The position numbers were made by a program, and so were the translations under genes. 5,427 nucleotides of DNA, from IMG/VR virus record IMGVR_UViG_2534681662_000019, one strand, 5' to 3'. Positions 1 to 5,427 of the stretch are shown here, piece after piece (the first letter of the stretch is position 1; each line of letters starts with the position of its first letter). Below the pieces are notes generated by a model. It was given only the letters and a program-made list of their open reading frames with translations, had not been told where the DNA came from and made no database searches. Source of the DNA: a virus. Lineage: Duplodnaviria > Heunggongvirae > Uroviricota > Caudoviricetes.

Positions 1-330
1 CCGGACTGTACCAGCGAAAACGGCACCCTGTCCGAACGCCGGCGGGCTGCCGCGAATAAAATGCGTATGACCGGCAATCTGAGTCGGCGCTTTTATGAAT
101 GGCTGGCTGCGCAGTACGGTTTTACCGTCAGGCTGACGGATTCCACAGAAGGCCAGTGGGTTACGCAGGTCAATATTTACGGTATTAAAAATTATCGCAA
201 CGCAACGGTGCTGGATAATGTTCTGACGCCGTTACGTGTTTATGAATCGGGTGCGCTGGAATGTTTACTGGAGAAATATAAACCCGCGCATCAGATTTAT
301 AAATTTGTTTACCATGACGGAGATAACTAA
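1..330 (+). CDS. 3'-terminal part of a phage tail/baseplate protein gene (Mu gene-48-like); 5' end lies upstream of the window
   Basis: Frame 1 is open from base 1 with no stop before the ATG at 61 listed in the ORF track, so the gene probably starts upstream. Its TAA stop (328-330) overlaps the S start codon as TAATG, a coupling typical of phage late operons. Product assignment is by position only. Confidence 0.55.
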   Translation, partial: PDCTSENGTLSERRRAAANKMRMTGNLSRRFYEWLAAQYGFTVRLTDSTEGQWVTQVNIYGIKNYRNATVLDNVLTPLRVYESGALECLLEKYKPAHQIYKFVYHDGDN

Positions 331-1865
331 TGTTTTATATTGATAACGACAGCGGCGTAACCGTCATGCCGCCCGTATCCGCCCAGCGTAGTGCTATCGT
401 TCGCTGGTTTTCAGAAGGTGACGGGAATAATGCTATCACATGGCCCGGCATGGACTGGTTTAATATTGTGCAGGCGGAGTTATTAAACACGCTGAAAGAA
501 GCCGGTATTCAACCGGATAAAACAAAATTAAACCAGCTTGCACTGTCCATTAAAGCCATTATGAGCAATAACGCGCTGCTGATAAAAAATAACCTCAGCG
601 AAATTAAAACTGCCGGGGCATCAGCACAGCGTACAGCACGTGAAAATCTGGATATCTGGGATGCCAGCCTGAACAAAAAAGGCCTCGTTCAGCTAACCAG
701 TGCCACTGACAGCCCCAGTGAAACGCTGGCAGCCACCGCAAAAGCGGTGAAAATTGCGATGGATAATGCCAATGCCCGTCTGGCAAAAGAGCGGAACGGA
801 GCAGATATTCCCAATAAACCGCTGTTTATCCAAAACCTCGGTTTGCAGGAAACAGTAAACAAGGCTGGTAACGCCGTTCAGCGTTCCGGCGATAAAATGA
901 CCGGAGAACTGAAAATTGGCACGGTGAATGCGCTGCGAATTTTCAATGATGCCTTCGGTCTTATTTTCCGTCGTTCAGAAGAGTACCTTCATTTCATCCC
1001 TACGGCTGAAGGACAAGGCGAAAACGGTGATATCGGCCCATTAAGGCCATTCGCTATAAATCTGAGAACAGGTGCTATATCTGTCAGCCACGGGGCCAAA
1101 ATTGATGGTGGGCTGGCGCTTGGTACAGATAACGCACTGGGCGGTAATTCCATTACTCTCGGAGATAACGACACTGGTATTAAACAGGGCGGCGACGGTG
1201 TCCTTTTATTCTATTCAAATGGACAACTGGCATTTGGGCTTCAACCCGCATCTGCTGATTTTTATAAGCGGGTTGCATATATTCATCAGGGAATAATTCC
1301 TGATGGAAGTGGCGCATTTGCAGACCAGTTGAATAATGCCACCGCGCCTTTTGTTCAGACGCAGTTTGCCTGGAATCCCACTCCTGGTGGTCATTACGTG
1401 CCGATAGTTAAGGGCTTGTCCATTCGCAATGGACAGGGCTATCCCGGCGCGGTCAGCTTTGGGTATTTACTGACAGAACAGTATGGATTTCCGGTTCCAT
1501 GTATTCATATGCGTGGCGATGGCGGTAATGATGCTTTATGGCAGTTTAACCCGAACGATAAATCCTTTATTTCACCGGGTGCTCTTATTGCGGGTGGCGT
1601 CCATTATAACACCGATGGAAATATATTTGGTGGGTGCTGGGGTTCAAACTTAAATGATTACCTGAATAGTTCTTTTATCAGAAATGTGCGTCTGGGAGGC
1701 AGACGTTCTGACGTATTATATCGCGGAGGACTTTGCGAACCAGGTAATGGTCATGTGACAACAGGATTGCAAATTATTGGTGAGGTTGATGGAGATGACT
1801 GGATGGTGTCACGACCACTACAAAAATACATTTCTGGTAACTGGTATAACGTTGAACAGGCATAG
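330..1865 (+). CDS. S: Tail fibre protein S: constant N-terminal part (Sc, about 330-838) fused in frame to the variable part Sv inside the invertible segment
   Basis: 511-aa ORF with ATG overlapping the upstream stop. It reads through gixL (826-851) as ...FIQNLGLQETVNKAGNAV... It shares a Gly-rich block (ALGGNSITLGDNDTGIKQGGDGVL) and a C-terminal block (GLQIIGEVDGDD...WYNVEQA) with the minus-strand S'v cassette. Followed 15 nt later by a tail-fibre assembly gene. Confidence 0.9.
   Translation: MFYIDNDSGVTVMPPVSAQRSAIVRWFSEGDGNNAITWPGMDWFNIVQAELLNTLKEAGIQPDKTKLNQLALSIKAIMSNNALLIKNNLSEIKTAGASAQRTARENLDIWDASLNKKGLVQLTSATDSPSETLAATAKAVKIAMDNANARLAKERNGADIPNKPLFIQNLGLQETVNKAGNAVQRSGDKMTGELKIGTVNALRIFNDAFGLIFRRSEEYLHFIPTAEGQGENGDIGPLRPFAINLRTGAISVSHGAKIDGGLALGTDNALGGNSITLGDNDTGIKQGGDGVLLFYSNGQLAFGLQPASADFYKRVAYIHQGIIPDGSGAFADQLNNATAPFVQTQFAWNPTPGGHYVPIVKGLSIRNGQGYPGAVSFGYLLTEQYGFPVPCIHMRGDGGNDALWQFNPNDKSFISPGALIAGGVHYNTDGNIFGGCWGSNLNDYLNSSFIRNVRLGGRRSDVLYRGGLCEPGNGHVTTGLQIIGEVDGDDWMVSRPLQKYISGNWYNVEQA
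826..851. other. gixL: gixL recombination site for Gin invertase (TTATCCAAAACC-TC-GGTTTGCAGGAA)
   Basis: 26-bp site with two 12-bp half-sites around a central TC dinucleotide (838-839). It matches the gix/hix half-site pattern as I recall it and is present in inverted orientation at 3837-3862. It lies inside the S coding sequence, as expected for the Sc/Sv junction. Confidence 0.85.
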
Positions 1866-1880
1866 CCATCAGGAGAATAT

Positions 1881-2408
1881 ATGCAACATCTGAAAAATAT
1901 TACCGCCGGAAACCCCAAAACCATTGAGCAGTATCAGCTTACGAAAAAAGCTGGCGTTATCTGGCTATATACAGAAGACGGTAAAAACTGGTATGACGAA
2001 TTAAAAAACTTTCAGGATGATACTTTAAAAATAGCTTATGACCAGAAGGGGATTATTCGTTGTATTGAGAAAGACGTATCAATGCTTAACCCTGACGGGT
2101 TAAGTGTTGTTGAGTTACCGAATATAACAGCCAACCGTCGCGCCGATATCTCGGGAAACTGGAAGTTTCTGGATGGTAAAGTAGTAAAGCGGGAATATAC
2201 AAAACAGGAACTGCAACAGCAGGCAGAGTTACAAAAAGCCGCTTTGCTTTCCGAAGCGGAGTCTGTGATTCAACCGCTGGAACGTGCTGTCAGACTGAAT
2301 ATGGCAACTGATGAGGAACGCACACGACTGGAATCATGGGAACGCTACAGCGTTATGGTCAGCCGTGTGGATACTGCAAAGCCTGAATGGCCACAGAAAC
2401 CAGAATAA
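1881..2408 (+). CDS. U: Tail fibre assembly protein U (chaperone for S)
   Basis: 175-aa ORF with AGGAG (1871-1875) 5 nt upstream of the ATG. Clear paralogue of the minus-strand 177-aa ORF (both start MQHLKNI..GNPKT.EQYQLTK...[12 protein letters not shown] and share ITANRRAD). Position directly after the fibre gene. Confidence 0.9.
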
Positions 2409-2417
2409 CAACAAATT

Positions 2418-2440
2418 AAGGCCCGTACGGGCCTTTTCTT
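2418..2440. terminator. Bidirectional rho-independent terminator between the convergent U and U' genes
   Basis: Hairpin aaGGCCC-gtac-GGGCCtt (2418-2435) followed by TTTTCTT on the + strand and preceded by an A/T-rich run (TTAATTTGTTGTT on the - strand). It sits in the 30-bp gap between the U stop (2406-2408) and the U' stop (2439-2441). Confidence 0.6.
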
Positions 2441-2972
2441 ATTCTGGTGGTTCCGGGAATGTTACAGGAAGAACCGAGGTATCAGTTGTCTCAACCTGTT
2501 GCACGTATCGCATCCAGTTCATCAGTTGCTGTCTGTCTGAATCAGTGATAATCCCCAAAGTAAGCTGTGTTTGCCAGAACTGCGTTTTTTCTCTGGCCTG
2601 CTGTAATAATATTTTTTTCTGGTTTTCCGTCTGTAGGCGCAACTCTTCTTCGGTATATACACGTTTAATGACTGCGCCATCTTTAAACATCCATTTACCT
2701 GAGTCGTCAGCACGCCGGTTGGCGGTAATATCAGGAATCTCAACGACGCTATAACCTTCAGGGTTAAGTGTGGAGGCATCTTTGGTTATGGCAACAATAA
2801 TATTATTTTCGTCGTAAACAATCTTTATGGTGTCTTCCTGAAAGTTATTTACTTCCTCATACCAGTTTTTACCGTCTTCTGTATATAACCAGATAACATC
2901 AAAATTCTTTGTTAGCTGATATTGCTCTTTTGTTTTTGGATTTCCTGACTTAATATTTTTTAAATGCTGCAT
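2439..2972 (-). CDS. U': Tail fibre assembly protein U' (chaperone for the alternative fibre S')
   Basis: 177-aa ORF on the minus strand, paralogous to U. Its ATG (2970-2972) lies 1 nt after the S'v stop codon (TAA, complement of 2976-2978), with AGGTG just upstream on the minus strand. Confidence 0.9.
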
Positions 2973-2975
2973 AAT

Positions 2976-3848
2976 TTACACCTGTGCGACGTTATACCAT
3001 GTGCCATTGATGTATTTTTGTATTGGTCTGAAGATGGCTTCATCATCGCCATCTACTTCACCAATGATTCTTAATCCGGTAATTGCGTGTCCGGCTTTTT
3101 CATAACGACCACCACGCGCCATCAATTGAACAACACGCGTACCCAGGCGAACATCTTTCACATAGCGGGAATCAAAATTCCCCCAGTTGCTGGGTTGTAT
3201 CTGACCGTTAACAGCAAATATTACTGAGTTATCTGTATTTCGCTGACTATAGAAATGCCAGCCAGAATCATCGCCAAGCTCTGCAACAGTTGGCCTTGAC
3301 GAAGCGCCCCATAAATTAAACCCTACGTTCTTCGTGGAGTTGTTGGAGCTGGATAGCGTGAATTTTTTACCATCCCCGGCCTGAATATTTTTAAAAGCAA
3401 TAGCCACTCCATTCTGAAAGCGGAATACACGCTGACTATTAGCATAAACATCCAGAATACCGTCTCCATTCTGTTTAAATCCGGTGTCATTATCACCAAG
3501 AACAATAGAGCTACCACCTAACGCATTCGTCGTACCAACTCCAAGACTGCCATTAATGACGGCATTTACCAGAATATTTAGTGCATCCCATTTCAGCGTC
3601 ATCAGGTCTTTTGTTGTGGTGCTCTGGCGGCTTCTCCATTTGAAATATTCATTGCCGTTGTCGCCTGTTTCAAACCACATGTATGAATCAGTGTCACCAT
3701 CGGCATCATTTTTAAATCCAATCTTCGCCCAGTCAGTATTTCGAATCCAGGCAAGGATTGAGTCATTTTCAAAAGTAAGCCCACCGGACAAGGTATCGCC
3801 ATTTTTTTGCACGGCGTTACCAGCCTTGTTTACCGTTTCCTGCAAACC
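2976..3848 (-). CDS. S': S'v: promoterless, startless variable C-terminal cassette of the alternative tail fibre, expressed only after G inversion as an Sc-S'v fusion
   Basis: Minus-strand open frame homologous to Sv at both ends (QETVNKAGNAVQ... and ...GLRIIGEVDGDD...WYNVAQV). It has no ATG or RBS of its own; the ORF track's M at 3845 is a TTG that is the Leu codon of the shared ...NLGLQETV... junction. The frame is closed one codon outside the crossover by a TAA (complement of 3855-3857) within gixR. Confidence 0.85.
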   Translation of the reverse strand, partial: GLQETVNKAGNAVQKNGDTLSGGLTFENDSILAWIRNTDWAKIGFKNDADGDTDSYMWFETGDNGNEYFKWRSRQSTTTKDLMTLKWDALNILVNAVINGSLGVGTTNALGGSSIVLGDNDTGFKQNGDGILDVYANSQRVFRFQNGVAIAFKNIQAGDGKKFTLSSSNNSTKNVGFNLWGASSRPTVAELGDDSGWHFYSQRNTDNSVIFAVNGQIQPSNWGNFDSRYVKDVRLGTRVVQLMARGGRYEKAGHAITGLRIIGEVDGDDEAIFRPIQKYINGTWYNVAQV

Positions 3849-3870
3849 GAGGTTTTAGATAATGGCTGTT
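3835..3870 (+). promoter_or_regulatory. Candidate gin promoter overlapping gixR (-10-like GATAAT at 3858-3863)
   Basis: GATAAT hexamer inside the outer gixR half-site, about 55 nt upstream of the gin start; the -35 is weak. In the Gin/Hin/Cin family the invertase promoter is reported to overlap the adjacent recombination site. The exact hexamers here are my inference. Confidence 0.3.
3837..3862. other. gixR: gixR recombination site (TTCCTGCAAACC-GA-GGTTTTAGATAA), inverted relative to gixL
   Basis: Its reverse complement is TTATCTAAAACC-TC-GGTTTGCAGGAA, identical to gixL except for one base (C in gixL, T in gixR). Central dinucleotide at 3849-3850. Located between the S'v cassette and gin. 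Confidence 0.85.
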
Positions 3871-3916
3871 TCCGGCCTGCATGGCATGATTTGCGCTTTT
3901 AAACGGGAGATCCAGA

Positions 3917-4510
3917 GTGCTGATTGGCTATGTAAGGGTATCAACAAATGACCAGAATACAGACCTGCAACGAAACGCTCTTGTTTGTGCAGGATGTGAA
4001 CAAATATTTGAAGATAAATTAAGCGGAACAAGGACAGACAGACCTGGATTAAAGCGCGCTTTAAAGCGTCTTCAAAAAGGTGACACACTGGTTGTCTGGA
4101 AACTGGATCGCCTCGGGCGAAGCATGAAACATCTGATTTCTCTCGTCGGAGAACTACGGGAGCGAGGGATTAATTTTCGCAGCCTTACTGACAGTATTGA
4201 TACGTCATCCCCAATGGGGCGTTTTTTCTTCCACGTTATGGGTGCCCTAGCTGAAATGGAACGAGAACTAATCATCGAGCGAACGATGGCAGGACTTGCT
4301 GCCGCCAGAAATAAAGGCCGTATTGGTGGGCGACCACCTAAACTAACCAAAGCGGAATGGGAGCAGGCCGGGCGTTTATTAGCACAAGGAATCCCCCGCA
4401 AGCAGGTTGCATTGATCTACGATGTGGCCCTGTCAACTCTGTATAAAAAACACCCCGCGAAACGAACGCACATAGAAAACGACGATCGAATCAATCAAAT
4501 CGATCGGTAA
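3917..4510 (+). CDS. gin: Site-specific DNA invertase Gin (serine recombinase, resolvase/invertase family)
   Basis: ORF starting at GTG 3917 with GGGAG (3905-3909) upstream. N-terminus MLIGYVRVSTNDQ has the catalytic Ser at position 9. The catalytic domain and C-terminal helix-turn-helix (GGRPPKLTKAEWEQA...) are characteristic of Gin/Pin/Hin/Cin. Located directly beside gixR. Confidence 0.95.
   Translation: MLIGYVRVSTNDQNTDLQRNALVCAGCEQIFEDKLSGTRTDRPGLKRALKRLQKGDTLVVWKLDRLGRSMKHLISLVGELRERGINFRSLTDSIDTSSPMGRFFFHVMGALAEMERELIIERTMAGLAAARNKGRIGGRPPKLTKAEWEQAGRLLAQGIPRKQVALIYDVALSTLYKKHPAKRTHIENDDRINQIDR
3960..4075. promoter_or_regulatory. Candidate Fis-dependent recombinational enhancer (sis) within the 5' part of gin
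   Basis: In Mu the enhancer lies inside the start of the gin coding sequence. Here there are Fis-like 15-mers of the G-N13-C type with A/T-rich cores, for example GAAGATAAATTAAGC (4010-4024) and GCGCTTTAAAGCGTC (4056-4070), plus a weaker one at 3962-3976 whose centre is 48 bp from the first. The Fis motif is degenerate, so this placement is tentative. Confidence 0.25.
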
Positions 4511-4518
4511 TACAGATC
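4484..4518. promoter_or_regulatory. Cluster of three GATC (Dam) sites upstream of the mom promoter: the methylation-sensitive OxyR (MomR) operator
   Basis: GATC at 4484-4487, 4502-4505 and 4515-4518, each within a GATCGA/CGATCG context, just upstream of the -35 region. In Mu, OxyR binds this region when it is unmethylated and represses mom. The sites lie inside the last codons of gin. Confidence 0.65.
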
Positions 4519-4520
4519 GA

Positions 4521-4572
4521 TTATGTCTCAATAACCACACTCAACCCATGATGTTTTTTAAGATAGTGGCGA
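4521..4572 (+). promoter_or_regulatory. mom operon promoter (Pmom): C-activator dyad, weak -35, 19-bp spacer with T6 run, -10 TAAGAT
   Basis: TTAT-N6-ATAA dyad (4521-4534); -35-like ACCACA (4534-4539); 19-bp spacer; TTTTTT (4554-4559) abutting the -10 TAAGAT (4559-4564). This is about 30 nt upstream of the com RBS and matches what I recall of the activator-dependent Mu mom promoter. Confidence 0.55.
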
Positions 4573-4592
4573 ATTGATGCAAAGGAGGTGAG

Positions 4593-4781
4593 ATGAAATC
4601 AATTCGCTGTAAAAACTGCAACAAACTGTTATTTAAGGCGGATTCCTTTGATCACATTGAAATCAGGTGTCCGCGTTGCAAACGTCACATCATAATGCTG
4701 AATGCCTGCGAGCATCCCACGGAGAAACATTGTGGGAAAAGAGAAAAAATCACGCATTCTGACGAAACCGTGCGTTATTGA
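4593..4781 (+). CDS. com: Com, zinc-finger translational activator of mom
   Basis: 62-aa ORF with strong RBS AGGAGG (4583-4588). Cys-X2-Cys...Cys-X2-Cys motif (C6, C9, C26, C29). Its 3' end overlaps the mom start by about 50 nt, as in the Mu com-mom operon. Confidence 0.9.
4715..4737 (+). promoter_or_regulatory. mRNA hairpin (translation-inhibition structure) sequestering the mom start codon
   Basis: UCCCAC (4715-4720) pairs with GUGGGA (4732-4737). The 11-nt loop GGAGAAACAUU contains the mom Shine-Dalgarno GGAG, and the GUG start (4732-4734) is inside the 3' arm of the stem. Consistent with Com-dependent translational activation. Confidence 0.55.
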
Positions 4782-5427
4782 GTATGAAGGCCAGATTGTT
4801 GGCTATGGTTCAAAGGAGCTGCGCGTTGAAACCATATCCTGCTGGCTGGCCCGCACAATTATTCAGGCAAAGCACTATTCCCGCCGTTTTGTGAATAACT
4901 CTTACCTCCACCTGGGAGTATTCAGCGGACGCGATCTGGTTGGCGTTCTCCAGTGGGGATATGCCCTTAACCCCAACTCAGGTCGTCGTGTCGTGCTTGA
5001 AACGGATAACCGGGGCTATATGGAGTTGAACCGCATGTGGCTACACGACGACATGCCCCGCAACTCTGAATCACGGGCCATCAGTTATGCACTGAAAACC
5101 ATAAGGTTACTGTATCCGTCAGTGGAGTGGGTTCAGTCTTTTGCAGACGAACGCTGCGGACGTGCTGGCGTTGTGTATCAGGCGTCAAATTTTGATTTTA
5201 TTGGCAGCCATGAAAGCACGTTCTACGAGCTGGATGGTGAGTGGTATCACGAGATAACGATGAACGCGATTAAACGCGGTGGACAACGAGGCGTGTATTT
5301 ACGGGCTAATAAAGAGCGTGCCGTGGTGCACAAATTTAATCAGTATCGCTACATCAGGTTCCTGAACAAGCGAGCAAGGAAGCGACTAAATACCAAGCTA
5401 TTCAAGGTTCAGCCATACCCTAAGTGA
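4732..5427 (+). CDS. mom: Mom, DNA adenine-modification protein (anti-restriction)
   Basis: Long ORF ending at the window edge. GTG 4732 has GGAG 7 nt upstream and gives 231 aa, the length I recall for Mu Mom. The in-frame ATG at 4702 (241 aa) used by the ORF track has no RBS. Overlaps com in a different frame. Confidence 0.85.

Follow-up and report, generated by a model that had tools for sequence, protein, structure and literature searches.

The stretch of DNA analysed here (IMG/VR virus record IMGVR_UViG_2534681662_000019; 5,427 nucleotides (nt), referred to throughout as the window) is almost certainly the right end of a Mu-like (Muvirus) prophage residing in an Escherichia coli chromosome. 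It carries two linked systems, the Gin/gix switch that exchanges the variable part of the tail fibre and the com-mom operon for modification of phage DNA. The window corresponds to bases 1-5,427 of E. coli contig AQDT01000040.1 (GCA_000355595.1), a draft assembly; an exact search with the 511-aa fibre protein returned this contig alone. A reading made earlier from the sequence alone had called it a Mu-type right-end module of fibre switch, gin, com and mom, and every element listed in that reading was found to be present. Nothing in the analysis contradicts the assignment to a Mu-like right end. The module is not Mu itself: the flanks of the invertible segment follow phage Mu closely, while both variable fibre cassettes within it are different from those of Mu.

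Genes were assigned with Pfam at the curated cut-offs. Eight reading frames tile 96.3% of the window, and all eight match the expected Pfam families above those cut-offs. The genes and the parts of the fibre switch are as follows, with lengths in amino acids (aa) or base pairs (bp).

1-330, plus strand: 3' part of gp48, homologue of Mu gene 48 (baseplate wedge subunit); Pfam Phage_Mu_Gp48, C-terminal part, E 2.9e-13
330-1865, plus strand: tail fibre gene S, 511 aa in the present orientation; Phage_fiber_2, E 8e-18
330-881, plus strand: Sc, constant part of the fibre, aa 1-184; 94% identity to Mu S residues 1-194
aa 185-511 of S, plus strand: Sv, variable part of the fibre, joined to Sc in the present orientation
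826-3862, both strands: invertible G segment, 3,037 bp including the gix sites; recognised by its inverted repeat, a simulated flip and both orientations in sister isolates
826-851, plus strand: gixL, 26-bp crossover site TTATCCAAAACCTCGGTTTGCAGGAA inside gene S, central dinucleotide TC at 838-839
3837-3862, minus strand: gixR, inverted, one mismatch to gixL; central GA at 3849-3850 on the plus strand, TC on the minus strand
1881-2408, plus strand: U, tail fibre assembly protein, 175 aa, paired with Sv; Caudo_TAP, E 7.8e-35
2418-2435, both strands: G+C-rich perfect palindromic hairpin between the convergent U and U'; terminator-like match on both strands
2439-2972, minus strand: U', assembly protein, 177 aa, paired with S'v; Caudo_TAP, E 1.8e-31
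2976-3845, minus strand: reading frame of the alternative fibre C-terminal part S'v (S'v part 2976-3848); Gp34_trimer
3917-4510, plus strand: gin, serine DNA invertase, 197 aa, GTG start, catalytic Ser9; Resolvase, E 7e-50, and HTH_7, E 2.4e-17
4593-4781, plus strand: com, 62-aa zinc-ribbon protein; Zn_ribbon_Com
4702-5427, plus strand: mom, DNA adenine-modifying enzyme; Pfam Mom, E 2.5e-75

The arrangement was compared with the right end of phage Mu (NC_000929, 31129-36602). Gene order and orientation are the same, lengths are nearly equal, and the gix site is placed within S as in Mu. Identity to the Mu counterparts is 94-100% for the Sc part of the fibre, Gin, Com, Mom, the mom promoter, the Com hairpin and attR. 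The differences are that both variable fibre cassettes are not those of Mu, that Gin is four residues longer, that the presumed binding site of the activator C carries two substitutions, and that both gix sites carry an A-to-G change. The Mu-like order of genes, gix sites, serine invertase and overlapping com-mom pair, which had been proposed from the sequence alone, was borne out by Pfam, by a gix scan and by an 80-nt overlap of com and mom.

Nucleotide searches located the boundary between what is shared with Mu and what is not. When the window was searched by megablast against 50,697 phage records, Mu and D108 matched at 97-98% identity but covered only 46% of it. Local blastn against Mu resolved this match into two blocks, both free of indels: positions 1-880 (98.3% identity), which span gp48, the constant part of S and gixL, and positions 3822-5427 (96.5% identity), which span gixR, gin, com and mom. 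Together these flanks differ from Mu by 72 substitutions. The interior of the G segment (approximately 880-3820) gave no close collinear match to Mu. The sequence-only reading had held that the window reproduces the Mu right end; this stands for the gene order and for the flanks, and does not stand for the G-segment interior. The BLASTN comparison that it had proposed, against Mu, D108 and enterobacterial chromosomes, was run with E. coli chromosomes and identified a Mu-like E. coli prophage with both variable fibre cassettes exchanged. Similarity to the gp48/S/U/gin/com/mom region of Mu is strong at both nucleotide and protein level; its absence would have refuted the earlier reading.

The junction with the host chromosome lies in the source contig just outside the window. 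Positions 5428-5542 match the right end of Mu at 112 of 115 bases and end in ...GCCGCTTCA (TTCA). This end of attR, 115 bp past mom, is followed by E. coli DNA with 99.9% identity to several strains. A Mu-type attR joined to E. coli DNA indicates that the element is a Mu-like prophage integrated in E. coli, its right end being of the Mu/SfMu type. The insertion is inside a very large E. coli gene for an inverse-autotransporter adhesin with invasin/Big_1 repeats (source contig 5543-11865), which is presumably disrupted by the prophage.

The crossover sites of the switch are well defined. The two gix sites are identical at 25 of 26 bases, with cores TC and GA, and a scan of the window allowing up to three mismatches returned exactly these two matches and none in 200 shuffled sequences. 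They form the outer 26 bp of a 55-nt inverted repeat, 95% complementary, that brackets 826-3862. Gin would recombine the two inverted sites, one of which lies within S, and so flip the 3,037-bp G segment. The 184 residues of Sc would then be joined either to Sv with chaperone U downstream, as in the present 511-aa form, or to S'v with chaperone U' downstream (460 aa). An in-silico flip of 838-3850, core to core, stayed in frame: fibre residues 1-184 were kept and the other 327 were replaced by a 276-residue P2-type tip, giving an uninterrupted S' of 460 aa with U' beginning 3 nt past the S' stop. The 511-aa S and the 460-aa S' thus have their first 184 residues in common. The S'v frame is promoterless and is expressed only after inversion, as Sc+S'v. 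The palindromic hairpin at 2418-2435 could terminate the fibre transcript in either orientation.

Inversion of this segment was observed in nature in two near-identical E. coli isolates, Esc31 and BLSE177-2012 (chromosomes of 5,230,280 and 5,230,277 bp, respectively). In each, the prophage lies at ldtD, encodes by annotation the same proteins Gin, Com, Mom and gp48, and matches the window at 98.7-98.9% identity. When the Esc31 locus is reverse-complemented, it agrees with the simulated flip of the BLSE177-2012 locus without a single mismatch over 6,362 nt. The inverted block in Esc31 corresponds exactly to window positions 826-3862 and has the opposite orientation to the flanking prophage genes, and the 460-aa fibre of Esc31 is identical to the predicted S' of the window at 452 of 460 residues. 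Polymorphic positions in the repeat arms placed the crossover between 831 and 864, an interval that includes the gix core. The G segment therefore inverts naturally at its gix sites in near-identical E. coli prophages, and the gix variants found in the window evidently work in this pair.

The predicted invertase is 99.5% identical to Mu Gin and 100% identical to SfMu Gin; it matches the solved Gin structure PDB 3uj3 with an E value of 3.5e-125, and Ser9 is present. With the Fis-dependent serine invertases Hin, Gin, Cin and Pin it has in common the resolvase-type domain with Ser9, a C-terminal helix-turn-helix and inverted 26-bp sites with a 2-bp core. The member in the window is Gin; Hin, by contrast, governs a flagellin promoter and not fibre fusions. 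Its length of 197 aa, against 193 in Mu, arises from a CAA codon in place of the TAA stop of Mu (window 4496-4510). The same codon is found in SfMu, in the Yersinia phage vB_YpM_3 and in the E. coli prophage, and the extension overlaps the cluster of Dam sites described below. The whole of gin is free of indels relative to Mu, and nucleotides 3906-4039, which include the first 123 nt of the gene, are identical. A Fis-dependent recombinational enhancer of Mu reportedly lies in the 5' part of gin (Kahmann et al. 1985). By analogy, the 5' part of gin in the window should carry this enhancer.

The two fibre cassettes have different sources. Sv resembles Mu S only in its last approximately 70 residues (about 40% identity over 73 aa). 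Identity to Sv reaches 98.8% in the Yersinia phages vB_YpM_3 and vB_YpM_23, against 76% in vB_YpM_Tongde and approximately 60% in some P2-like phages. The DNA of the Sv tip (window 900-1865) was found in 406 of 5,426 complete E. coli genomes, approximately 370 of them at 95% identity or more, and 13 of the matching places are on plasmids. The annotation at such loci reads 'phage tail protein', 'prophage tail fiber N-terminal domain-containing protein' or 'hypothetical protein', or is absent. The other cassette, S'v, is 95% identical at the amino acid level to residues 394-669 of the P2 fibre protein H. Its first 96 residues are 84% identical to S of the Mu G(+) arm and the remainder is P2 H. 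Because the start of S'v resembles Mu G(+) S, the Mu-S-like arm is positioned opposite to its place in the Mu reference.

At the nucleotide level the match to P2 is confined to window 2644-3866 (91% identity, 1,223 nt) and comprises the H tip and the first approximately 110 codons of G. Of the two assembly proteins, U has 77% identity with Mu U; the figures for U' are 70% with Mu U' and 68% with P2 G. The N-terminal approximately 110 codons of U' fall within the P2 G-like block and the last approximately 68 codons fall outside it, so that U' looks chimeric, with a C-terminal third that does not come from P2 G. P2 also differs in that its fibre is non-invertible and has its own N-terminal part. 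Both variable fibre cassettes have been replaced by horizontal exchange, S'v with a P2 H tip and Sv with a tip common in other E. coli prophages. Judged by these alignments, the G segment is a mosaic of circulating fibre cassettes set within a Mu frame.

By analogy with Mu, a flip would change the receptor-binding tip and with it the host range. The switch may toggle between the P2-type tip and the Sv tip of other E. coli prophages, giving a host-range pair unlike that of Mu, a proposal to which we give an even chance. The Sv state may rely to some degree on a protein of the outer membrane: adsorption of the two published phages with the Sv tip, vB_YpM_3 and vB_YpM_23, is somewhat reduced by proteinase K treatment, and that of vB_YpM_5 and vB_YpM_6 is not.

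Downstream of gin, positions 4529-4866 are identical to Mu, and the control elements expected of a com-mom operon were located.

4484, 4502 and 4515, plus strand: three GATC (Dam) sites, cluster 4484-4518, at the 3' end of gin and just past it, upstream of the mom promoter
4521-4564, plus strand: mom promoter region, with dyad TTATGTCTCAATAA (4521-4534), -35-like ACCACA (4534-4539), 19-nt spacer with a T6 run, and -10 TAAGAT (4559-4564)
4700-4718, plus strand: Com target hairpin GAAUGCCUGCGAGCAUCCC, loop motif CC-UGC-GAG, i.e. CC(N)3GAG
4716-4736, plus strand: translation-inhibition stem CCCACGGAGAAACAUUGUGGG, containing the mom GUG start at 4732

Mu, SfMu, vB_YpM_3 and the E. coli prophage share the full set of GATC sites. 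In Mu, Dam sites upstream of mom give a Dam-dependent relief of repression. The -35, T6 run and -10 of the promoter are conserved with Mu in the alignment; we take these to be the elements of Pmom, and the dyad to be the site of the activator C, as in the Mu promoter. Activation of the mom promoter by C is assumed by analogy with Mu. The form of the dyad seen in the window also occurs in the prophage of E. coli BLSE177-2012 and is absent from Mu, SfMu and vB_YpM_3, the last of which has the CCCC dyad spacer of Mu. A scan for sigma-70 promoters returned 6 sites, against 10.4 in shuffled sequences, and missed the weak, activator-dependent mom promoter, making the scan uninformative. The operon would be read from an activator-dependent promoter downstream of three Dam sites.

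Com is 100% identical to Mu Com and has the zinc cysteines Cys6, 9, 26 and 29. The motif CC(N)2-3GAG in the Com-binding loop and the hairpin/stem model have been described for mom mRNA (PMC6483171). Following the Mu model, Com would bind the mRNA hairpin and open the stem that hides the mom GUG start. The mom frame encodes 241 aa from the ATG at 4702 and 231 aa from the GUG at 4732. The protein has 99.2% identity to its Mu counterpart and a structural match in PDB 8bv8 (E 3e-157). It retains W48, H58, Y59, R111, S124, D149, R151, Y159 and W181, residues linked to activity in this GNAT-fold enzyme. Mom moves glycine from Gly-tRNA(Gly) onto adenine N6 in double-stranded DNA, and restriction is blocked once this adduct has rearranged to its carbamoylmethyl form (Silva et al. 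2026, PMC13219725). By homology, the Mom protein of the window would modify adenines of the phage DNA in the same way (glycyl, then carbamoylmethyl) and block host restriction.

The mosaic as a whole is present in public records. The Mu-like phages vB_YpM_3 and vB_YpM_23 (MT374852, MT374856) have been described with an invertible G segment, gin and mom (Microbiol Spectr 2023, PMC10434027). The genome of vB_YpM_3 is collinear with the entire window at 98.7% without gaps, and so is the BLSE177-2012 prophage. Both have the Sv and S'v cassettes of the window. The closest known elements further include vB_YpM_23 and the E. coli prophages in Esc30 and N1286. Five complete E. coli chromosomes match 90-100% of the window, three at 98.5-98.8%, one at 96.1% and one at 91.7%; these are the only 5 of 5,426 complete E. 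coli genomes with at least 90% of the Mu-type window. The element in the window is distinct from vB_YpM_3 and the BLSE177-2012 prophage in that mom stands directly before an attR of the Mu/SfMu type, whereas those two have an extra 447-nt hypothetical open reading frame (ORF) between mom and the right end (8484-8930 of the extracted locus in both) and a Mom that ends 4 residues later. The system, and this mosaic version of it, are already known, in agreement with the earlier view that nothing novel should be claimed.

Four other explanations of the window were weighed. Mu or D108 itself, whether as an integrated phage or as contamination from the laboratory, might be suggested by the flanks (96.5-98.3% identical), by an identical Com and by a Gin and a Mom that differ from those of Mu by one and two residues, respectively. 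The 46% coverage and the exchange of both cassettes exclude this explanation, and we hold it to be extremely improbable: the interior at approximately 880-3820 is without a near-identical collinear match, Sv has no Mu counterpart, S'v is a P2 tip, Gin has 197 aa against 193, and the flanks carry the 72 substitutions. A P2-like prophage or another invertible fibre system (the P1 C segment with Cin, the e14 P segment with Pin, or a multi-site shufflon of the Min type) would account for the 1.2-kb stretch that is 91% identical to P2 H/G, and fibre switches of the invertase family do have gix-like sites and fibre homology in common. Yet the context is that of Mu, with gp48 upstream, com-mom downstream and an attR ending in TTCA; Gin is nearly the same protein as in Mu (99.5% identity), and the resemblance to P2 does not extend beyond the tip cassette. 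In P2, H and G are bordered by the backbone genes I and J and, at the opposite end, by fun(Z); none of these was found in the window. A multi-site shufflon was ruled out by the presence of only two gix-like sites at up to three mismatches. Such an origin is very improbable. An assembly artefact that joined reads of a Mu-like and a P2-like prophage into one G segment is conceivable for a draft assembly, given that E. coli genomes often hold several related fibre cassettes (a median of 2 matching places per genome). Three complete E. coli chromosomes nevertheless show the same gapless collinear arrangement at 98.5-98.8%, two others show it in a looser form, and it recurs in a phage isolate that was sequenced independently; the chance of an artefact is negligible.

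The remaining explanation is a decaying remnant, Mu-like in sequence, in which the switch, mom or both no longer work in the source strain. Several observations limit the case for a working Mu-like right end. Only the right end is visible, since the contig begins inside gene 48, and the remainder of the prophage, which may or may not be complete and inducible, is unseen. The presumed C-binding dyad TTATGTCTCAATAA differs from the Mu dyad TTATGCCCCAATAA by C-to-T changes at spacer positions 4526 and 4528. Both gix sites have an A-to-G change relative to Mu (at site position 20 in gixL, its only difference), and gixR has an additional C-to-T. The inversion was observed in a 98.7%-identical prophage and not in the source strain. 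The fold of 4680-4760 gave the expected stem, but with an energy no better than that of shuffled sequences (z -0.58), and the Com hairpin/stem model for the window therefore rests on identity to the probed RNA of Mu. Against decay, all eight frames are intact at full Mu length and all catalytic residues are kept, the gix variants of the window recombine in nature in the Esc31/BLSE177-2012 pair, and vB_YpM_3, which carries the same module, grows lytically (PMC10434027). A remnant is thus unlikely, though less so than the other three alternatives, and a Mu-like prophage right end with a Gin/gix switch and a com-mom operon is the preferred explanation.

The rest of the window holds nothing further. 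The 5' end of gp48 is truncated by the contig start; the part present is 99% identical to Mu gp48 residues 72-180, and its stop codon has one base (330) in common with the start codon of S. Base 1 of the window is base 1 of the contig, so that the draft assembly breaks within the prophage. The five gaps between genes (3-82 nt) contain the U/U' hairpin, gixR with the gin upstream region, and the mom promoter. Two further long ORFs, at 2311-2754 and 3484-3858 (both plus strand), were rejected as hidden genes because neither has a Pfam match and each runs out of frame or antisense to U, U' or S'v. The window contains no repeat array. A permissive Rfam search gave only two matches, both far below threshold and taken as chance: RAGATH-33 scored 22 bits where the gathering score is 120, and IS009 scored 19 where it is 117. 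In NCBIfam, no model matched the fibre, assembly, Com or Mom proteins, and Gin gave only sub-cut-off serine recombinase matches. No ORF or repeat in the window is left unexplained, as the sequence-only reading had also concluded.

The window thus contains a textbook module whose exact mosaic has already been deposited and described, and it can be counted as explained. It illustrates cleanly how unrelated phage lineages exchange fibre cassettes in nature within an invertible segment, here a P2 tip placed in a Mu switch, and the sister isolates catch the G segment in both orientations. If the switch does toggle between the P2-type and Sv tips, the novelty would lie in the pairing of cassettes within a known switch and not in the mechanism.

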